A DNA stretch of 64,000 nucleotides from an uncultured Candidatus Rokubacteria bacterium (lineage in GTDB: Bacteria > Methylomirabilota > Methylomirabilia > Rokubacteriales > DASRDR01). This document shows, piece by piece, positions 22,667 through 33,350 of this stretch (position 1 is the stretch's first letter; each line of letters begins with the position of its first letter). The notes under the pieces were generated by a model. It did no database searches. It saw nothing but the letters and a program-made list of their open reading frames with translations, and had not been told where the DNA came from. Location: NCBI GenBank assembly GCA_963805625.1, contig CAWDVE010000017.1:64001-128000 (forward strand), given 5' to 3'. The translations under genes and the position numbers were made by a program.

Positions 22667-25600
22667 GTGCTGACGGAACACTCGACCCGCGCGGGGCTCC
22701 CGCCGGCCGCCGACTTTCTCGATCCGGCGGTGCCGCCGCCGGCCTGCCTCGCGGCGCTCGGGCATCTGGGCTTCGTCGACCCGGCCGGCGCGCTCGCGAA
22801 CCTCCGCCGGCTCGCCGAGACGCCCGATCTGCGCGACCAGGCGGCGGCACTCCTGCCGCGGCTCCTCCACCACCTGGGGGCCTCGGCCGATCCCGACATG
22901 GCGCTCAACAACCTGGAGCGCCTCGCCGCGGCCGCACTCGACCGGCGCGGCTTCTATGCCCTGCTCGCCGCCCACCCGGAGGCCATCCCGATCCTGACGA
23001 CGCTCGTCGCGACGAGCCAGTTCCTGGCCGACGCGCTGATCCGCTCCCCGCAGACGGTCCCCTGGCTCCTCGATCCTGGCGTGATGCGGACACGCTCTCG
23101 CGAGGCGATGCACGCGGAGGTGGCCGGCGCCTGCCGTCCGTTCCGGACCGACGAGGCACGGCTCAACGCGCTCCGGCGGGTGAAGCGCCGCGAGCTGTGC
23201 CGGATCGGCCTCCGGGACCTGCTCGGGGACGCGGATCTCGTGACGACCACCCAGGAGCTGTCGGAGCTGGCCGACGCGTGTCTGGCGCAGGCCCGGGCGA
23301 TGGTGGAGCCGGCTCTCCACGCGCGCTACGGGCGGCCGGCGCACGTCGCCCCGGACGGCCAGCGGATGCCTACCGGGTTCGCGGTGATCGCGCTCGGCAA
23401 GCACGGGGGCGCCGAGCTCAACTACTCGTCCGACATCGACCTCTGCTTCGTCTACGAGGACGAGGGCGAGACGGACGGGCCGGAGGTCGTGTCGAGCCGG
23501 GCGTACTTCGCGCGCCTGGCCGAGCATCTGGTGGGGGCGCTGACCGCGATGACGGAGGAGGGCACGGCCTACCGGGTCGACCTCCGGCTCCGGCCCGAGG
23601 GGACCGGCGGCCCGCTTGCCCTCCCGCTCGCCGCCTACCGCTCCTACCATGCGGCGCGCGGGGCCCTCTGGGAGCGCCAGGCGCTGATCAAGGCACGGAT
23701 GGCCACCGGGGACGAGCGGGTAGGGCAGGCGTTTCTCGATCTGGCGCGCGAGATCGTCTACCGACCCGGGCTCGAGCGCGAGGCGCTCGGAGAGATCCGG
23801 GCGATGAAGAACCGGATCGATCGGCGGCTGCGCGCGCGGGGGCAGCAGGAGCGGCATGTCAAGCTCGGCGTGGGCGGGATCCGCGATATCGAGTTCCACA
23901 TCCAGGCCCTCCAGCTCCTCTACGGCGGGCAGGATCCCTGGCTCCGCGAGCGCAACAGCTTGCGGGCCCTCCACCGGCTCGCCGAGCGCGGCTACCTGTC
24001 CTGGGAGGAGTCGGGGCGGCTCACGCACGGCTACGTCTTCCTGCGGACGATCGAGCACCGCCTCCAGATCCTCCACGCGCTCCAGACACACACGCTGCCT
24101 GCCGATCCGAACGAGCTCGCGAAGCTGGCGCGGCGCCTCGGCTACACGGGGGACCGGGAGGTCGTCGCGCGCACGTTCCTCCTCGACTACGACCGGACGC
24201 GCCGGACGGCCCGCACCGCGTTCGAGGGATTCTTCGACGCTCCTGGGCGGGAGGTGCCGGAGGCGCCGCCGTGGGACGCGGCGGCCGTCGCCGCGGTCGG
24301 CTTCGCCGATCCCGAGCGCGCGCGTCAGAACCTCCGTCTCCTGTGGGAAGGGCCGGCGCTGGTGGCGGTTCCTGCGGCTGTCCGGACCGCGCTGCGCACG
24401 CTGCTCCCCGCCACGCTCGCCGCGCTCGGGGCGGTGCCGGATCCGGACGCGGCCCTCGATGCGCTTGAGCGCTTCGTCGCCACCGCGGGGCCGCGAACGG
24501 CCTACCTCGCCCGGCTGGCCTCGACCCCGGCGCTGCTCGGCGGGATGCTCACGTTCTTCACGCGGTCGGAGCGGCTCGCGCAGACGCTGATCTCGCGGCC
24601 GGAGCTGCTCGACGCGCTGGGCCCGGCGGCCGGGACCCGGCCCCGGTCCGCGCGCCTGCTCCGGGCGGCGTTCCGCGAGTTCGCCGCCCCGGGGGCGGAC
24701 GCCGCCGACCGGCTCCGGCTCTTCAAGCAGCGGGAGGAACTCGAGATCGCCTGGCGCGACCTCGTCCTCGGCGAGCGGCCAACCCGGGTCGCATGGGCGC
24801 TCGGCGAACTGGCCGAGGCGAGCGTCGCCATCGCCTGGGAGCTGGCCGTCGCCGAGGCTCGAGCCGCCCGGGGCGAGCCCCTGGTCGACGGACGACCCGT
24901 GCCGGCGCTGGTCGTCGGCATGGGCAAGCTCGGGGGCCGTGAGCTCGACTACGGATCCGACCTCGACCTGGTCGTCCTCTATGACGGGCAGCGTGAGACC
25001 GGCCCGGAGGCACACGTCTACTTCGACCGGGTGGTCGACCGCCTCTACACCATCCTGACCGCGATCACGCGGACGGGCCAGGTGTTCCGCGTGGACCTCC
25101 GCCTCCGCCAGGGCGGCAAGGCCACGGCGCTCGCTCACTCCCTGGAGACTCTCGACCGCTACCTCCAGGAGGAGGCGGCCCTCTGGGAGCGCCAGGCGCT
25201 CGTGCGCGCCCGGCCGATCCTCGGCGACCCGCCGCTCGCCCGGCGCTTCATGACGCTCCGCCGCATACGGGTCTTCGGCCCCGGGCTCTCGGAGCAAGAG
25301 CGCGCGGAGATCCACCACGTCCGGATGCGCATGGAGCGGGAGCTCGGGCGGGAGGGGCCTGGGCGCATCCACCTCAAGTTCGGCGCCGGTGGGCTCGTGG
25401 ACGTCGAGTTCCTGGTCCAGGTCCTCCAGCTGACCCACGGTGCGCGTCACGGGACGCTCAGGACACCGTCGACGCGCCTCGCCCTCGCGCGTCTCGGCGC
25501 GCTCGGACTGCTGCCGGATGCCGCCGCCCGCGGGCTCCTGGAAGCCTACGAGTTCCTTCGCCGGCTCCTCCGGTCGCTGCGCCTCGGCCAGGTGCGGCCG

Positions 25601-25750
25601 GCCGACTGTCTCCCGACGACGGGCCACGTGCTCGCGCGGCTCGCGCGGGAGGCGGGCCAGGATGGCGGCCGGGCGCTCCTCGCGCGGCACCGCGAGGTGG
25701 CGGAGTTCGTACGGGCGGAGTATTTTCGGGTCGTGGGAGGGGACGCGTGA
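22667..25750 (+). CDS. glnE: Bifunctional glutamine synthetase adenylyltransferase/adenylyl-removing enzyme
   Basis: Two NTase motifs ALGKHGGAELNYSSDIDL and GMGKLGGRELDYGSDLDL, two RVDLRLR, two WERQAL; start approximate. Confidence 0.93.
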   Translation: MLTEHSTRAGLPPAADFLDPAVPPPACLAALGHLGFVDPAGALANLRRLAETPDLRDQAAALLPRLLHHLGASADPDMALNNLERLAAAALDRRGFYALLAAHPEAIPILTTLVATSQFLADALIRSPQTVPWLLDPGVMRTRSREAMHAEVAGACRPFRTDEARLNALRRVKRRELCRIGLRDLLGDADLVTTTQELSELADACLAQARAMVEPALHARYGRPAHVAPDGQRMPTGFAVIALGKHGGAELNYSSDIDLCFVYEDEGETDGPEVVSSRAYFARLAEHLVGALTAMTEEGTAYRVDLRLRPEGTGGPLALPLAAYRSYHAARGALWERQALIKARMATGDERVGQAFLDLAREIVYRPGLEREALGEIRAMKNRIDRRLRARGQQERHVKLGVGGIRDIEFHIQALQLLYGGQDPWLRERNSLRALHRLAERGYLSWEESGRLTHGYVFLRTIEHRLQILHALQTHTLPADPNELAKLARRLGYTGDREVVARTFLLDYDRTRRTARTAFEGFFDAPGREVPEAPPWDAAAVAAVGFADPERARQNLRLLWEGPALVAVPAAVRTALRTLLPATLAALGAVPDPDAALDALERFVATAGPRTAYLARLASTPALLGGMLTFFTRSERLAQTLISRPELLDALGPAAGTRPRSARLLRAAFREFAAPGADAADRLRLFKQREELEIAWRDLVLGERPTRVAWALGELAEASVAIAWELAVAEARAARGEPLVDGRPVPALVVGMGKLGGRELDYGSDLDLVVLYDGQRETGPEAHVYFDRVVDRLYTILTAITRTGQVFRVDLRLRQGGKATALAHSLETLDRYLQEEAALWERQALVRARPILGDPPLARRFMTLRRIRVFGPGLSEQERAEIHHVRMRMERELGREGPGRIHLKFGAGGLVDVEFLVQVLQLTHGARHGTLRTPSTRLALARLGALGLLPDAAARGLLEAYEFLRRLLRSLRLGQVRPADCLPTTGHVLARLAREAGQDGGRALLARHREVAEFVRAEYFRVVGGDA

Positions 25751-25755
25751 GTCCG

Positions 25756-25793
25756 CAGGCCGAAGGCCGTCCACCTCAGGCCGAAGGCTGTCC
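25756..25793 (+). repeat. Short direct repeat in the glnE-polA spacer
   Basis: caggccgaaggccgtcc / caggccgaaggctgtcc. Confidence 0.6.
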
Positions 25794-25808
25794 GACAAGG
25801 CTGGCCCA

Positions 25809-28418
25809 GTGAGCGAGTCGGGGTCGGAGCGCTTCTACCTCGTGGACGGCCCGTCGTACCTCTATCGCGCCTATCATGCCATCGGCCATCTCTCGACGTC
25901 GCGCGGCCTGCCGACCAACGCGACGCTCGGGATGACCATGATGCTTTGGAAGCTTCTCCGCGAGGACCGGCCGACCTACATGGGGATCGCCTGGGACGCG
26001 CCGGGCCCCACCTTCCGGCACCAGCAGTTCGAGGCCTACAAGCTCCAGCGCCCCGGAATGCCGAAGGACCTGGTCGAGCAGATCCCGTGGGTCCGCCGGT
26101 CGCTGGAGGCGATGGGTCTCCCGCTGCTCGAGGTGCCGGGGTACGAGGCGGACGACATCCTGGCGACCGCCGCCCGCCGGCTCCGCGACACGTCGATCGA
26201 CCTGGTGCTGGTCACGGCCGACAAGGACGCCCTTCAGCTCGTCGACCCGCGCGTCACGGTGCTTTCGGTCCTCGGCCGCACCGGGGAGCGCGTCCTCTAC
26301 GATTCCGCGAAGGTCGAGGAGCGCTGGGGCGTCCCGCCGGCGCGCATCCCCGACATCCTCGCGCTGATGGGCGACTCGATCGACAACATCCCGGGGGTGC
26401 CCGGGGTGGGGGAGGTGACGGCGCAGAAGCTCCTGCGGGAGTTCGGGAGCCTGGAGGCGCTCTACGCAAATCTCGCGGTCGTCACCGGACCGAAGCTCCG
26501 CGAGGCGCTGGCGCGTCACCGCGACCAGGCCTTCCTCTCGCGCCAGCTGGCGGTCCTCGAGGGGACGCTCCCCATCGAGCTCGACCTGGAGAGCTTCCGG
26601 GTCCGGGAGCCCGAGTGGGAGCGCCTGCGCGCGCTCTGGACCGAGCTCGAGTTCTCCGCGCTCCTCCGGCAGATCCCGGCGCGCGCCGTGGCCCTGCCCG
26701 CCGAGACCGTGCCGGTGGTCGACCGGGCGGGGTGGCGCGACTTCCTCGCCCGCGCCGGCGGGCGCCTTGCGGTCGAGCCCGTTCTCGGGGGGAGCGCGCC
26801 CGAGTTCACCCTCCACGGGGTGGCGGCGTACGCGCCGGCGGCCGGCGCGCGCTACCATGTGGGCTGGCCGGAGATCCCCGCCGAGGTGAGGCTGGTGGGG
26901 CACGACACGAAGGCCCTCGTCGGCTGGGCGCGGGGCGCGGAGGTCGCCCTGGGCGCGGGGGGGGTCGACGACACGGCCGTGGCGGCGTATCTCCTCAACT
27001 CCGGCCGGAGCGGGTACCCGCTCGACCAGCTGGCGGCCGAGGCGGGGGGACCCGCCGTGCCTGGCGCACTCGAGATGCTCCTCGCCGGCGCGCCGGTGAG
27101 CGACGCGGATCCGGCGCGGCTCGCTGCGTGGACCGGCGCCCGGGCGGAGGGCGTGTGGCGGCTCGCCGAGTCCCAGGCGCCGTTGCTCCGCGAGCACGGG
27201 CTGGCGCACCTCTACGAGACGCTCGAGGTGCCGCTCGTCCCCATCCTCGCCGACATGGAGCGGCTCGGGATCCGGGCCGATCCCGAGCGCCTGGGTCAGC
27301 TGGCGAAGGAGCTCGACACTCAGCTCGATGCGCTCCTGCGGGAGATCCATCAGCTCGCCGGCGAGGCGGTCAACCCGAACTCGCCGAAACAGCTGGCGGT
27401 CGTGCTCTTCGAGAAGCTGAAGCTGCCGCCGCTCAAACGCACGAAGACCGGCTACTCCACCGACGTGGACGTGCTGGAGGAGCTGGCGCTCGGGCACGCG
27501 CTCCCGGGGAAGATCCTGGAGTACCGCCAGCTCGCCAAGCTCAAGGGCACGTACGCGGACGCGCTCCCGGCGCTCATCCATCCGCGGACGGGGCGCATCC
27601 ACACCTCGTTCAACCAGCTGGTCGCTGCGACGGGGCGGCTGTCGTCGTCGAACCCGAATCTCCAGAACATCCCGATCCGTACCGAGCTCGGCCGGCGCAT
27701 CCGCCAGGCGTTCATCCCGGAGGACGGGTGGCGCTTCGTGGCCGCCGACTACTCGCAGATCGAGCTGCGGATCCTCGCGCACTTCTCGGAGGAGCCGGCC
27801 CTGGTCGAGGCGTTCCGCCGGGGGGAGGACATCCACACGCGCACCGCCGCGCAGATCATGGGCGCGGCGCCCGAAGCGGTCACGTCGGAGATGCGGCGCC
27901 TGGCCAAGGTGGTCAACTTCGGGATCCTCTACGGTCTCTCCGGATTCGGGCTCTCGCAGGCCGTGTCGATCGGCCGGGCCGAGGCCCAGCGCTTCATCGA
28001 CGACTACTTCGCGACGCACCCGCGCGTGCGGGCCTACATCGACCGCGTGGTGGCCGAGGGCCGGGTGCAGGGGTACGTCACGACCCTTCTCGGGCGGCGC
28101 CGCTACCTGCCGGAGCTTGGCGCGCGGAATCCGGTGGCCCGGAACGCCGCCGAGCGGATGGCCGCCAACGCGCCGATCCAGGGCACTGCGTCCGACATCA
28201 TCAAGCTCGCGATGGTGCGCCTCGCGGCAGCGCTCGCCGCGCGGGGACTCCGCAGCCGGATGCTGCTCCAGGTCCACGACGAGCTCCTCCTGGAGGTCCC
28301 GGACGCCGAGACGGCGGCCGTGCGGGAGCTCCTGCCTGAGATCATGGAGGCCATCGTGGCGTTGGCCGTGCCCCTGCGGGTCGATGTCAAGGAGGGCCGC
28401 GACTGGGCGGAGGTCTAG
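25809..28418 (+). CDS. polA: DNA polymerase I
   Basis: LVDGPSYLYRAYHA, GYEADD, GDSIDNIPGVPG, ADYSQIELRILAH, AKVVNFGILYG, LQVHDEL. Confidence 0.97.
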   Translation: MSESGSERFYLVDGPSYLYRAYHAIGHLSTSRGLPTNATLGMTMMLWKLLREDRPTYMGIAWDAPGPTFRHQQFEAYKLQRPGMPKDLVEQIPWVRRSLEAMGLPLLEVPGYEADDILATAARRLRDTSIDLVLVTADKDALQLVDPRVTVLSVLGRTGERVLYDSAKVEERWGVPPARIPDILALMGDSIDNIPGVPGVGEVTAQKLLREFGSLEALYANLAVVTGPKLREALARHRDQAFLSRQLAVLEGTLPIELDLESFRVREPEWERLRALWTELEFSALLRQIPARAVALPAETVPVVDRAGWRDFLARAGGRLAVEPVLGGSAPEFTLHGVAAYAPAAGARYHVGWPEIPAEVRLVGHDTKALVGWARGAEVALGAGGVDDTAVAAYLLNSGRSGYPLDQLAAEAGGPAVPGALEMLLAGAPVSDADPARLAAWTGARAEGVWRLAESQAPLLREHGLAHLYETLEVPLVPILADMERLGIRADPERLGQLAKELDTQLDALLREIHQLAGEAVNPNSPKQLAVVLFEKLKLPPLKRTKTGYSTDVDVLEELALGHALPGKILEYRQLAKLKGTYADALPALIHPRTGRIHTSFNQLVAATGRLSSSNPNLQNIPIRTELGRRIRQAFIPEDGWRFVAADYSQIELRILAHFSEEPALVEAFRRGEDIHTRTAAQIMGAAPEAVTSEMRRLAKVVNFGILYGLSGFGLSQAVSIGRAEAQRFIDDYFATHPRVRAYIDRVVAEGRVQGYVTTLLGRRRYLPELGARNPVARNAAERMAANAPIQGTASDIIKLAMVRLAAALAARGLRSRMLLQVHDELLLEVPDAETAAVRELLPEIMEAIVALAVPLRVDVKEGRDWAEV

Positions 28419-28461: not shown

Positions 28462-29697
28462 TCAGATCGCGCCGCGCGCCTTGAGCAGGGCCACGTCGAA
28501 ACCGAGGAGATCGCCCCAGATCGCGTCGTTGTCGCTGCCTACGAGCGGGGCCGGCGTCGCATAGCCGGCCTGCGTCGCGCCGAACTTCAGCGGAAAGCCG
28601 GGCGCCACCACCTCCGGCCGGGGCCCCAGGGTCGGGTGGCGGAGCGGCTCCAGCATGCCGCGCGCCACGAGCTGCGGCCACGCTTTCAGGCCGTCGATAT
28701 CGTGAATCGGGCCGCAGGCCAGCTCTTCGGCGCGCAGGCGGGCGGTCGCCTGCGCCGTCCGGCGCTCCCGTGTCCATGCCGCGACGACGGCATCAACGCG
28801 GTCATTGTTCGCGAGCCGCCACTCGCGAGTCATGAAGTTCGCGTCGCCTTTCAAGTCGGCGCGGTCGATCGCGTCGAGCAGGCGTGACCATTCGGTGTCG
28901 CTGGCGGTGCCGATGGCGATCCACCCGTCCGCCGTGGGATAGACGTTGAACGGGGAGACACGTGGGATGCGGTTGCCTTGGCGTGTCGGCCAGCCCAGCG
29001 TCTGCCACACATCGAGCGACTCGTCCAGCACGAGTGCGAGCAGACAGTCGACCATGCTGACGTCGACGTGCTGCCCCTCTCCGCTCCGAAACCGGTGCAG
29101 CAGTGCCGCCAGGATCCCGGCGAAGGCGAAGGTCCCCGCGACCGTGTCGGCCAGCGGCGAGCCGGCCTTCATCGGCGGTCCCTCGGGGTCGCCCGTGATG
29201 CTCATCAACCCCGCCGCCGCCTGCGCCATCGTGTCGTAGGCCTTCACCGCTGCATCCGGGCCGGTCTGGCCGTAGCCGCTGATCGAGCAGTAGACGATAT
29301 CGGGCTTCACGGCCCTGCAGGCCGCGTAGTCGACGCCGAGCTGGGCCGCCGTTCCGACGCTCCAGTTCTCGACCACCACATCGGCCTTGCGCACGAGCGC
29401 CAGGAACAGCGCCGAACCCTCGAGGTGCTTCAGGTTCAGCGTGATCGCCCGCTTGCCCCGGGCGCGTTTCAGGTAGGGCACGCCGAGGTCCTGCGGTGTC
29501 CGCCGGCGGAGCGACAAGCCTTCCGAGCCCAGATACGGCGGGCTGTCGGCGGTCACGTCGCCGGTCGCCGGGTTGTCGACGTGGATCACCTCGGCGCCGA
29601 GCCCGGCGAGGAACAAGGTCGCCTGCGGCCCCGACAAGTACTGCGTGAGGTCCACCACGCGGATGCCCGAGAGGATCCCCGACATGCCGCGTCTCAC
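28462..29697 (-). CDS. Family III CoA-transferase (CaiB/BaiF)
   Basis: LSGIRVVDLTQYLSGP, ADVVVEN, YCSISGYGQTGP, GLMSITG, SPLADTVAG (catalytic Asp); GTG overlaps the upstream stop. Confidence 0.93.
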   Translation of the reverse strand: MRRGMSGILSGIRVVDLTQYLSGPQATLFLAGLGAEVIHVDNPATGDVTADSPPYLGSEGLSLRRRTPQDLGVPYLKRARGKRAITLNLKHLEGSALFLALVRKADVVVENWSVGTAAQLGVDYAACRAVKPDIVYCSISGYGQTGPDAAVKAYDTMAQAAAGLMSITGDPEGPPMKAGSPLADTVAGTFAFAGILAALLHRFRSGEGQHVDVSMVDCLLALVLDESLDVWQTLGWPTRQGNRIPRVSPFNVYPTADGWIAIGTASDTEWSRLLDAIDRADLKGDANFMTREWRLANNDRVDAVVAAWTRERRTAQATARLRAEELACGPIHDIDGLKAWPQLVARGMLEPLRHPTLGPRPEVVAPGFPLKFGATQAGYATPAPLVGSDNDAIWGDLLGFDVALLKARGAI

Positions 29698-30254
29698 GTG
29701 TGGCTGAAACGGCCGAGCCAGATGTTGATCGCCTGCGTCGCGGCGTCCACCGCTCGCATCTCGATCTCCGCGTCGGTCAAGGTGCTGAGCGGGTGCTGGA
29801 TCACCGCCGGCGCCAGGGCTCCCATCCCCAGGGCCGTGCGCTGCACCTCAGCCTCGTGCAGGAACTCGGTGGTCACCACCACCGCGGTCGGCCGATTCAG
29901 GGTCTCCAGGCGGACGCCGTCGTGCATACAGCACGATGTGCAGGACCCTCAATCGCCGATGGCGGTCAAGACGATGTCGTTGCCCGCGGCGATGTCGTCG
30001 ATGAGCTCGGGCGCCGCCGCCCTCGAGAAGCTCTCCTTGCGGTAGTAGGTCACTGCGCCGAAGGGATGCACGGCGACGAGCTTCTCTGTCACTTTGCGCA
30101 ACAGCTTGCCCGCGTTCCATTTCGTGTTGTCGAGCACGGCGAGGCGGAGGCCATCGAGTCGCTCGACACGCGGCGCGATCGGCTGCGGTGTCGCCGCCAC
30201 GGCGCCGCGCGGGTCGTAGACCGGCAGGCCCTGATTCGGAACCATGTGGTCCAT
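29694..30254 (-). CDS. UGSC-family selenoprotein (186 aa, Sec at TGA 29949-29951)
   Basis: ORFs 29949..30254 and 29694..29927 share a frame and join across one TGA: AIGD-U-GSCTSCCMHD; GAGGAGG RBS; SECIS-like hairpin follows. Confidence 0.88.
29920..29936 (-). promoter_or_regulatory. Candidate bacterial SECIS element
   Basis: TCGTGC-TGTAT-GCACGA hairpin; the GU-containing loop starts 18 nt after the UGA. Confidence 0.65.
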
Positions 30255-30273: not shown

Positions 30274-31359
30274 TCAGAGGTAGCAGGATCCATCGACACA
30301 GATCGGCCCCTTGACCGGCGTCGCCCCGTCGATGCCGCGGAGCACGGGACTGCTCATGTGGCCCCAGCCGGGGATGAAGGCGGAGAAGCGTCCCGCCTCG
30401 CCGCCCGCGACGAACAGATGGATGTGGTCGGGGCTCGGCACGATCGGGATATGCGAGTCGAGCTCGCGCTTGTACCAGACCGGGAGGTTGCGGTTGTACA
30501 CCTTGCCGTAGCGATGCTCGAACGCGAGCGCGCCGAACCGGTTGCCGGCGTTCGTCCAGAGATAATTGCGGATATCCGCGCGCCGCCAGCCGTGCGCAGC
30601 GATGGTGCGCGCGTGCTCGAGACCCAGCACGACCGCGCAGTGGCCAGACGACACCGCGTTGTTGTGGGCGATGGTGGACATTGCGGATACGATCGAATCG
30701 AGAATGCCCTGCGGATCGTTGGCGACGTGGTTGGTCACGCTGTGTGGTGGCTCGGCGGCGAGCACGAAGACGGTCGAGTCGCGCTCATCGAAACCCTTGT
30801 CGACGTGGTAGGGCGCGAATGGGCTCTGCGCCTCGTTCTCAGCGATGCAGTACGTGTATTTCCCGGGATGGCCGAGCGTCGCCTTGTCGAGATCTCCGGG
30901 CCAGGCGCCGCCGACATTGAGCAGGATCAGCCGGATCGCCCGGCCGATCGTGGCGTTTGCCCGGTTGCCGGAGCCGAAGCAGTTGCAGCCGGCGTTCATG
31001 CCGATCTCGCTCCCGAGCGGCCCGTTCACCACGAGCAGCGGTGCCGCCATGTGCGTCGTTGCCTGCACCCCGTTCAGGTTGAATGCCGCAGTGGTGAGCG
31101 CCAGCATCGCCGACCGCACGACGGGTGCGTAGGCCGGCTTGCAGCCGGCCATCACCAGGTTGATCGCCAGCACCTGCCGCGTCAGGTTGCCCCAGCGCGG
31201 CGGGACCCGGCACTCGACCAGGTCCGGCTCGCCGCCGAGCGACCGGAGCATCGCGACGATCTTTTCCGGTGTTGGCGGCGCGACCGGCAGGCCGTCCGAG
31301 AAGCCCTGCTCGTAGTACCACTCGACGAGGTCGACTGATGGATCGACGAGGGTGTCCAT
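30274..31359 (-). CDS. Uncharacterised UGSC-associated protein (DGLP..PPT family) with C-terminal CxxxxC
   Basis: GFSDGLPVAPPT, AINLVMAGC, GNRANATIGRA, HPGKYTYCIAENE; ends PICVDGSCYL. Confidence 0.8.
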   Translation of the reverse strand: MDTLVDPSVDLVEWYYEQGFSDGLPVAPPTPEKIVAMLRSLGGEPDLVECRVPPRWGNLTRQVLAINLVMAGCKPAYAPVVRSAMLALTTAAFNLNGVQATTHMAAPLLVVNGPLGSEIGMNAGCNCFGSGNRANATIGRAIRLILLNVGGAWPGDLDKATLGHPGKYTYCIAENEAQSPFAPYHVDKGFDERDSTVFVLAAEPPHSVTNHVANDPQGILDSIVSAMSTIAHNNAVSSGHCAVVLGLEHARTIAAHGWRRADIRNYLWTNAGNRFGALAFEHRYGKVYNRNLPVWYKRELDSHIPIVPSPDHIHLFVAGGEAGRFSAFIPGWGHMSSPVLRGIDGATPVKGPICVDGSCYL

Positions 31360-31419
31360 GCCCTGTATGGTCCCCGGAACCCGTCGGCCATGCAATCTCT
31401 TTATTGATATGTACTGTCG

Positions 31420-31434
31420 ATGCATAATGTGCAT
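31420..31434. promoter_or_regulatory. LysR-type operator
   Basis: ATGCA-taatg-TGCAT inverted repeat (T-N11-A) in the AT-rich divergent spacer. Confidence 0.7.
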
Positions 31435-31457
31435 GGATGGTGGCGGGGAGAGACGCG

Positions 31458-32411
31458 ATGCGATCCGCGGCGGACGTCTCGTCGCGCCAGCTCCGGGTGG
31501 TCATCGCGCTCGCGCGGTTTCGCAGCTTCGTGGGGGCGGCGGCGTTCCTCGGCTTGAGCCAGCCGGCGCTGTCCCGGGCCGTCCAGCGCCTCGAGCGATC
31601 GCTCGGCGTCACGCTGTTCAGCCGCAGCACGCGCCTGGTATCGCTGACGGCGGCCGGCCGTGATTTCCTCCCGACCGCGGAGCGCCTGCTGAGCGATCTC
31701 GACCGTCACCTTGGGCGCATGCGTGAACTGGCCGGCCAGCAGCGGGGATACGTGGTCGTGGCGAGCCTCATGTCGCTCGCGTACCGCGTCCTGCCAGCCG
31801 CGACGGCGGCGTACCGCCGGCGGTTCCCCGGTATCGACCTGTATCTCCGCGAGGGGGTCCAGGACGCCATCCTCGCCGACGTGCGCGGCTCGGTCGCCGA
31901 TCTCGGGATCGGCAATGTCAATGACGTGACCGCCCCGGTCGTCGCCGAGCCGCTCGGGGACGAGGCGTGTCTTCTCGTCCTGCCACGCAGGCATCCCTTC
32001 GCCGGGCGGCGGGCCGTGTCGATCGCCGATCTCCAGGGCGAGCCCCTCATCTCGATGCCGCCCGAGTCGGGCCTGCGACGCCTGATCGACAGCGCCGCCC
32101 TGTCGGTGGGCGTGCGTCTCCACCACGCGGTTACGCTCCACCAATTCGGTACCCTGTTCAGCTTCGTGCGCTCCGGGCTGGGCGTGGCCATTGTGCCCGC
32201 CTCGGCGCTCCCGCCCCGGGGCGATCGAGCACTGTGCATTCGCCCCCTCGCCGGCCCGGCCGTCACGCGCAGGGTCGGGATCCTGACGCTCGGCGACCGT
32301 GTCCTGTCGCCGGCGGCGTCGTCCTTTCGCGAGATCTTCAGGGCGCACTACGCGGCGACGGCGCAGGGGAGATCCGGGTCCCGGACCCTTTCCCCCCCAG
32401 CGGGACGCTGA
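31458..32411 (+). CDS. LysR family transcriptional regulator
   Basis: SFVGAAAFLGLSQPALSRAVQRLERSLGVTLFSRSTR, VRSGLGVAIVP. Confidence 0.95.
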   Translation: MRSAADVSSRQLRVVIALARFRSFVGAAAFLGLSQPALSRAVQRLERSLGVTLFSRSTRLVSLTAAGRDFLPTAERLLSDLDRHLGRMRELAGQQRGYVVVASLMSLAYRVLPAATAAYRRRFPGIDLYLREGVQDAILADVRGSVADLGIGNVNDVTAPVVAEPLGDEACLLVLPRRHPFAGRRAVSIADLQGEPLISMPPESGLRRLIDSAALSVGVRLHHAVTLHQFGTLFSFVRSGLGVAIVPASALPPRGDRALCIRPLAGPAVTRRVGILTLGDRVLSPAASSFREIFRAHYAATAQGRSGSRTLSPPAGR

Positions 32412-32498: not shown

Positions 32499-33350
32499 AT
32501 GCCCGAGTTCCGCTACGTGATCTGCGACGTCTTCACGGATCGCCCGCTCGAGGGCAACCCACTCGCCGTCTTCACGGACGCGCGCGCCATCCCGGAGGCG
32601 CTCCTCCAGCCCCTCGCCCGCGAGATGCACCTGTCGGAAACGGTCTTCTGCTATCCGGCGCGTGCGGGCGGCCATGTGCGCATCCGGATCTTCACTCCTG
32701 GACACGAGCTGCCGTTCGCGGGGCACCCGGTCCTGGGCGCCGCCTTCGTCCTGGCGGCGCCGCTCCAGCTCCCGGAGATCGTCCTCGAGACGGGGGTCGG
32801 ACCCGTGCCCGTCCGGATCGAGCGGGACGGCCCGCGGATCGTCTTCGGCCGGATGGTGCAGCCCGTGCCGCGAATCGAGGCGGTCGCGGACCCGGCCGCC
32901 CTCCTCCGCGCGCTCGGGGTCGCGCGGGCCACGCTTCCCGTGGAGCTCTACGACAACGGCCCGCGCCATGTCTTCGTGGCTCTCGACAACGAGGCTCAGG
33001 TGGCCGCGCTCCAGCCGGATTTCCAGACGCTCGCGCGTCTGCTCCCGCGCGGGACGACGAACTGCTTCGCGGGGGAGGGGCGTCGCTGGAAGACGCGCGC
33101 CTTCGCCCCCGGCGCCGGCGTGCCGGAGGACCCGGCCACCGGCTCCGCCGCCGGGCCGCTCGCCTGCCACCTGGCGCGCCACGGCCGCATCCCCTTCGGC
33201 GAGGAGATCGAGATTCGCCAGGGCGCCGAGATCCACCGTCCGAGCGTCCTCTTCGCCCGCGCCGACGGCACCGCCGCCGTGATCGAGCGTGTCGAGGTGG
33301 GCGGCTCGGCGGTGACCGTCGCCCGCGGCGAGTTCCGGCTCCCCGGCTGA
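32499..33350 (+). CDS. PhzF family isomerase
   Basis: [43 protein letters not shown]. Confidence 0.93.

Follow-up and report, generated by a model that had tools for sequence, protein, structure and literature searches.

A predicted UGSC-family selenoprotein, split by an in-frame UGA, and its companion protein in a Candidatus Rokubacteria genome

The window analysed here is a stretch of 64,000 nucleotides (nt) from an uncultured Candidatus Rokubacteria bacterium (contig CAWDVE010000017.1, positions 64,001 to 128,000 of the forward strand, assembly GCA_963805625.1). Its minus strand carries, at 29694..30254, a gene of the UGSC (seleno)protein family that is interrupted by a single in-frame TGA. 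Two open reading frames (ORFs), of 101 residues (29949-30254, a range that includes the TGA) and 77 residues (29694-29927), share one frame, and the sole stop separating them is the TGA at 29949..29951, the predicted selenocysteine (Sec, U) codon. The ORF map and the sequence agree in all details with a preliminary description made from the letters alone, in which the two ORFs were joined across this codon. Read as U, the TGA yields a product of 186 residues with U102 in the motif D-U-G-S-C-T-S-C-C (...LTAIGD-U(102)-GSCTSCCMHDG...), and a second TGA (29694-29696) ends the gene. The predicted stretch across residue 102 is ...LTAIGD-U-GSCTSCCMHDGVR..., and the read-through sequence at the Sec position is ...DIVLTAIGD-U-GSCTSCCMHDGVRLE.... 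The gene is the second in a three-gene operon layout, comprising a 361-residue partner protein, UGSC and a coenzyme A (CoA)-transferase, beside a divergent LysR-family gene. Its ATG start (30254-30252), preceded at 8 nt by GAGGAGG (30269-30263), lies 19 nt past the TGA stop of the partner gene, and 8 nt separate its own stop from the CoA-transferase ATG at 29685. A promoter and terminator scan of the locus found none, and no RNA run is listed among the 20 public runs that contain it.

The read-through protein scores above the curated cut-offs of both models of the family, matching NF041046 ('UGSC family (seleno)protein') with 135.3 bits against a cut-off of 125 over profile positions 2-145 of 147, and PF24696 with 177.6 bits against a cut-off of 25 over positions 2-171 of 172. 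The family assignment made at the outset therefore stands, and so does the reading as a single 186-residue protein, with the PF24696 domain covering both halves. Publications on the family date back to 2007-2008, curated NCBI and Pfam models of it exist, and the window gene is a further member. In the passages that treat it, a 'UGSC-containing protein' of unknown function is mentioned already in 2007, from unpublished data (PMC1976440). The corresponding sections of a 2008 study of GOS data count 255 Sec forms and 21 Cys forms, place UGSC among the major selenoprotein families of aquatic metagenomes, propose a thioredoxin (Trx)-like fold and a redox role, and show a fusion to a domain named Unknown_1 (PMC2398784). 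A 2026 review, where it lists the family (NF041046), includes it among selenoproteins with largely uncharacterized functions (PMC13188914). In these passages of the family literature the Unknown_1 fusion is the sole partner mentioned and no function is stated. The window protein has in common with the family described by Zhang and Gladyshev a full-length match to the hidden Markov models, the U-G-S-C motif, a length of about 185 residues, the Sec/Cys pair and a selenocysteine insertion sequence (SECIS) directly after the UGA. No defining difference separates the two, and the subfamily of the window protein has two extra Cys residues (U-G-S-C-x-S-C-C).

The TGA column is conserved among relatives. 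The genome carries four UGSC genes, with exactly one in-frame TGA apiece. With the window protein as the query, matches were found in 38 of 41 related genomes, and every match listed but three contained one in-frame TGA. Two of these three are the pieces of the G009 copy described below. The third is the orthologue in genome G003, for which two TGA were counted; its frame closes 80 codons past U, and the second TGA was taken as its own stop. A search with the pattern D-U-[GDA]-S-C over loci L027-L060 (L059 unmatched; L028 and L031 both corresponding to the window) gave D-U-G-S-C with TGA in 33/33 motif matches. Across 151 genomes of the phylum, 124 had PF24696 matches, and one TGA was present in all 150 matches listed, beyond which the scan returned a further 484. 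Orthologues with Cys in place of Sec were collected in a scan of one genome per species, which found 247 relatives; 80 loci were kept, and all of them carry TGC (73) or TGT (7) at the Sec column. The scan pattern (...D-C-G-S-C) required Cys, so that this count shows that Cys forms exist and not how common they are. These loci belong mainly to Bordetella, Achromobacter, Mycobacterium, Rhodococcus, Bradyrhizobium, Cupriavidus and Saccharopolyspora (Pseudomonadota, Actinomycetota and other phyla). The comparison of homologues suggested with the preliminary description thus returned TGA or Cys at this column.

In a quick tree, the window protein, the G003 orthologue and the database protein P0002 group with the 49 Cys-type rows in a clade with a support of 99. 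P0002 is the closest database homologue (65% identity) and has W at the Sec column, that is, the TGA was translated by another table; it is a public case of UGSC mis-annotation. A copy from the same genus (genome G009, contig 12: 156971-157517) occupies two frames, one piece with one TGA and one TAG and the other without a stop, and is either a decaying gene or another assembly error. Genome-wide recoding of TGA was considered and ruled out, since the partner and UGSC genes both end in TGA; it is also disfavoured by the presence of Cys, rather than Trp or Gly, at the column in the Cys forms.

Compared with the G003 orthologue, the ratio of non-synonymous to synonymous substitution rates (dN/dS) is 0.26 over the 95 codons that precede the TGA and 0.24 over the 80 that follow it, the latter thus being under purifying selection. 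One Pfam domain over both halves, a conserved TGA column and similar dN/dS on either side place the split ORFs beyond chance. Close homologues always have C105 and almost always C108 and C109; across the whole family only U/C102 and C105 are kept, the other paralogues reading UGSCSSGS or UGSCTSWS.

The core SECIS hairpin lies at 29920..29936 on the minus strand and has a stem of 6 bp, composed of the 5' arm UCGUGC (29936-29931) and the 3' arm GCACGA (29925-29920), closed by the loop UGUAU (29930-29926). The stem begins 12 nt and the loop 18 nt past the UGA. The hairpin folds alone with -8.4 kcal/mol, and its 81-nt context with -37.2 kcal/mol (z -2.5). The published bacterial model, as restated from bSECISearch in a figure legend (PMC13188914, Fig. 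2 legend), calls for 3-9 nt in the loop and 4-16 bp in the stem, G in the first or second loop position, often followed by G or U, a distance of 16-37 nt from UGA to loop, and a minimum free energy of -7.5 kcal/mol or lower. The window hairpin, with a loop of 5 nt, G at position 2 followed by U, a 6-bp stem, a distance of 18 nt and -8.4 kcal/mol, falls within all four of these constraints, in agreement with the position and bacterial SECIS geometry first assigned to it. It differs from the bSECISearch consensus in that loop positions 1 and 5 (U and U) are unable to pair, whereas most relatives have the pairable A and U there. When 24 distinct sequences of the four paralogue groups were aligned without gaps, the five inner pairs were present in 24/24 and the loop G and U were invariant. 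Compensatory changes occur from C-G to G-C in six sequences and from U-A to G-U in three, and the covariation score is 0.155 compared with 0.029 for shuffles (reached by 0/500), with slid controls at 0.039 or below. Rfam gave no match to the hairpin region at E up to 1.

The genome search for selA, selB, selC and selD found all four components of the Sec machinery, with selB frameshifted in the assembly. The selA gene (576 bits) is directly adjoined by selB, the tRNA-Sec scores 76.9 bits and is typed by ARAGORN as SeC with anticodon tca, and selD scores 395 bits. The selD gene (G000, the genome of the window, contig 10: 162221-163141) has an in-frame TGA of its own and is thus itself a predicted selenoprotein.

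Taken together, positions 29694-30254 very probably constitute one UGSC selenoprotein gene. SelB and tRNA-Sec are predicted to decode its UGA as Sec, with the hairpin that lies 12-34 nt further on as their guide. In annotation, it should be called as one 186-codon selenoprotein instead of two fragments, and likewise the three further copies in the genome. Several points count against this interpretation. We infer selenium insertion, for the window protein as for every other member of the family. In selB, one frame gives way to an overlapping second one within a C7G5 run (G000 contig 21, ~224970-224997; L004:1474-1501). Among the contigs of four public metagenome runs that were aligned onto selB, two, one each from X1 of study P1 and X4 of study P4, were identical but for an extra base in the C7G5 run, which restores the frame; the frameshift is probably an assembly error, and it is graded as probable rather than proven because these two contigs have a depth of only 4-5. 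The hairpin lies inside coding sequence (GSCxSC...), so that its conservation is partly driven by the protein and the support it lends is real but partly confounded; moreover, the covarying pairs number two of eight, a count matched in 190/500 shuffles. The 80 Cys orthologues, collected with a pattern that requires Cys, are uninformative on the frequency of Sec outside the phylum.

The predicted structure of the UGSC protein (predicted local distance difference test score, pLDDT, of 91.3; predicted template modelling score, pTM, of 0.85) is a parallel alpha/beta sandwich, in which U102 is located between the strand 94-100 and the helix 103-118. The model resembles generic flavodoxin/Rossmann-like domains of many unrelated families (Foldseek TM of 0.4-0.5; VIA Z of 9-10.7), and thioredoxin-fold entries are absent from the Foldseek and VIA matches listed. 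A sequence search of the PDB gave nothing meaningful for UGSC, the UGSC profile or the partner, and matches in the ESM Atlas were limited to hypothetical clusters.

A more specific relationship was found with selenoprotein B, the Sec-containing subunit type of glycine, sarcosine and betaine reductase and, as PrdB, of D-proline reductase. Genes of the corresponding GRDB family are present in 75 of 201 genomes of the phylum, and the genome itself has one (contig 10: 1703724-1704755, 372 bits). Six GRDB-like proteins read ...VILTST-U-GT[CSG]TRCGA...ELERAGLPT...HPLG..., and their genes follow a GrdE-type gene (PF09338) in 4/4 of the loci scanned. Alignment of the UGSC profile (A3) with the GrdB-like profile (A8) by hhalign (probability of 95.0%, E of 3.9e-8, 92 columns) places the Sec column on the Sec column and residues 82-180 of UGSC onto 328-423 of the GrdB-like proteins. 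This profile alignment indicates that the Sec module of selenoprotein B is present in UGSC. Both share the pattern ...LT..-U-G-[ST]-C...ELE..G.PT...HPL..., and in both the gene is placed after that of the catalytic or partner subunit. Selenoprotein B is larger, however (~434 residues compared with ~185), UGSC is not a member of GRDB, and no relation of its partner to the pyruvoyl proenzymes GrdE and PrdA was detected.

The partner (P0122) is an unnamed protein of 361 residues with the motifs DGLP, AGC and AENE, encoded at 30274..31359 on the minus strand (stop TGA at 30274-30276); its start could also be at 31434. Neither Pfam nor NCBIfam has a family that matches it, with E values of up to 10 allowed. 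The family is nevertheless very large, with 4743 cluster representatives at E<=0.001 and 1193 at <=1e-30; close homologues are 76-99% identical and are all named 'hypothetical protein' in their sources. Conserved residues are DGLP (22-25), G72-C73, G139-R140, C171 and E174. The model of the partner (pLDDT of 92.7, pTM of 0.92) gave weak Foldseek matches only, to class I fumarate hydratase (E of 3e-5, TM of 0.25) and to Toblerone-fold amidohydrolases (TM below 0.2); all fold matches being weak, a known fold is not claimed for it. The C-terminal tail (...PICVDGSCYL, 30277-30306) is modelled with low confidence. Its Cys residues 354 and 359 are invariant in 30 sequences (A6: the window protein and 29 close homologues) and are not conserved in the wider family; the tail is possibly a mobile redox tail.

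The association of the two proteins is close. A partner homologue is located within 1.5 kb of UGSC in 33/33 loci from relatives, in some of which the two are fused in one frame, and the partner lies directly upstream of UGSC in 79/80 Cys loci, the exception being cut off by a contig end. The partner is an obligate companion of UGSC, adjacent or fused wherever examined; this companion and the operon go beyond what the preliminary description contained. The Unknown_1 domain, as it appears in the 2008 fusion, is probably the partner domain found fused to UGSC in the present loci. The three other UGSC genes of the genome, on contigs 25, 21 and 1 (L027, L029 and L030), each adjoin a partner homologue. 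The UGSC gene of L029 is also preceded by a CoA-transferase gene, and L030 has a single 563-residue frame that joins UGSC to the partner domain.

The third gene of the operon, at 28462..29685 on the minus strand, encodes a family III CoA-transferase of the CaiB/BaiF type (PF02515, 370.7 bits). It scores below every NCBIfam equivalog cut-off; the best models are succinate--glutarate CoA-transferase (the top match, 268.7 bits against a cut-off of 750), succinyl-CoA:mesaconate CoA-transferase and CoA:oxalate CoA-transferase. Among the 80 Cys loci, a CoA-transferase homologue was found within 3 kb in 54 and a LysR homologue in 60. On the same strand and within the same distance, a thioredoxin-reductase homologue is encoded in at least 29, a TctC-type receptor in at least 36, an acyl-CoA dehydrogenase in at least 16 and thioredoxin in at least 6, these counts being lower bounds because many genes lie at the edge of the fetched flank. 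For both cassette reductases tested, the scores (372.6 and 375.5 bits) exceed the TIGR01292 cut-off of 343.45. A Pfam scan of eight Cys loci gave the gene order LysR, partner, UGSC, CoA-transferase, TctC and trxB, or variants of it. These thioredoxin-system genes recall those of selenoprotein B systems, in which grd operons presumably carry trxB and trxA.

By analogy with selenoprotein B, the 186-residue protein may be the redox subunit of a two-part, thioredoxin-fed enzyme formed with the upstream 361-residue partner; we give this about the same chance of being right as of being wrong. In such an enzyme, the partner would bind and activate a carboxylate or acyl-CoA substrate, and Sec102, capping the N-terminus of a helix in the flavodoxin/Rossmann-like domain, would attack the substrate held by the partner. 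Sec102 would end as a selenenyl-sulfide with Cys105, to be reduced by thioredoxin and thioredoxin reductase. Apart from its different catalytic subunit, such an enzyme would work on the principle of selenoprotein B in the glycine and D-proline reductases. A carboxylic acid would serve as substrate, and the family III CoA-transferase encoded downstream would handle it in the form of a CoA thioester. Tentatively, the three-gene operon could encode a new type of thioredoxin-driven selenoenzyme, in which a mini selenoprotein B module (UGSC) docks on a catalytic subunit of the large unnamed partner family, for which no solved fold is clear, and a CoA-activated carboxylic acid is reductively transformed. 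If true, this would be the first function for the ocean-abundant UGSC family. The same partner-UGSC-CoA-transferase cassette, of the Cys type, occurs in cultivable Rhodococcus, Cupriavidus, Bradyrhizobium, Advenella and Saccharopolyspora, and the Cys orthologues and frequent cassette trxB in such hosts bring the function within reach of standard genetic and enzymological tests.

This proposal has to be set against a number of contrary findings. The function of UGSC and its partner is itself one that we infer. The homology between UGSC and GrdB is limited to about 92 columns, and 44 UGSC sequences gave no PF07355 (GRDB) match at E up to 10. The partner family aligns with the GrdE-like and PrdA pyruvoyl proenzymes (PF09338) with an hhalign probability of 0.2%. 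For the fold of the partner, VIA-align over 48,161 chains returned no match with a Z of 8 or higher (best Z of 6.3). The operon in the window is without a thioredoxin reductase gene of its own.

Four other explanations were weighed. In one, the pair would isomerize or epimerize an acyl-CoA or dicarboxylate in a redox-neutral reaction, Sec/Cys serving as an acid-base group or transient nucleophile. The partner model is weakly similar to class I fumarate hydratase (7xky, Z of 5.2) and to 2-methylcitrate dehydratase and iminodisuccinate epimerase entries (Z of 4.5-5.2), and CoA-transferase and acyl-CoA dehydrogenase genes are often neighbours. These fold matches nevertheless have a Z below 8, the range that the tool assigns to common arrangements, and a dedicated trxB in at least 29/80 cassettes argues for a net input of electrons, which makes a redox-neutral reaction unlikely. 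It is also rather improbable that UGSC is a carrier or maturase whose U-x-x-C-x-x-C-C helix binds a metal, an Fe-S cluster or a selenium species for transfer to the partner: outside the close homologues, in which four Sec/Cys residues fall within eight positions (C105 invariant and C108/C109 nearly so), the family keeps only U/C102 and C105, with paralogues reading UGSCSSGS and UGSCTSWS. The partner does have the conserved Cys73 and Cys171, but the cassette thioredoxin reductase fits disulfide cycling better.

A role in general antioxidant defence, as a thiol/selenol oxidoreductase that acts alone and to which the neighbouring genes would be incidental, would accord with the UxxC at a helix N-cap in the model and with the Trx-like fold and redox role proposed where the 2008 study discusses the family (PMC2398784). 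The model is flavodoxin/Rossmann-like, however, without a thioredoxin fold among the matches listed, the partner is adjacent or fused in 33/33 and 79/80 loci, and the operon is metabolic and LysR-controlled, all of which leaves this explanation very doubtful. That a nonsense mutation has broken a Cys-type UGSC gene, leaving a truncated 101-residue product or none, is hardly credible: the frameshifted selB in the assembly and the G009 copy in two frames with a TAG, by which decay does occur in the genus, speak for it, whereas the TGA stands at the same column in four paralogues, 33/33 motif matches and all 150 phylum matches listed, the codons past it have a dN/dS of 0.24, relatives keep the SECIS hairpin and two independent contigs restore the selB frame.

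The surroundings of the operon complete the description of the locus. Downstream, the operon comprises three genes only, because an ORF at 25440-28418 converges on its end; this ORF, of 992 residues, reads like a DNA polymerase I. Upstream, the divergent LysR-family regulator is encoded at 31437..32411 on the plus strand. The AT-rich divergent intergenic region between it and the partner gene (31360-31436) contains, immediately ahead of the LysR start, the T-N11-A dyad TGCATAATGTGCA, presumably of the kind bound by LysR regulators. Beyond the LysR gene, a PhzF-family isomerase is encoded at 32499-33350.

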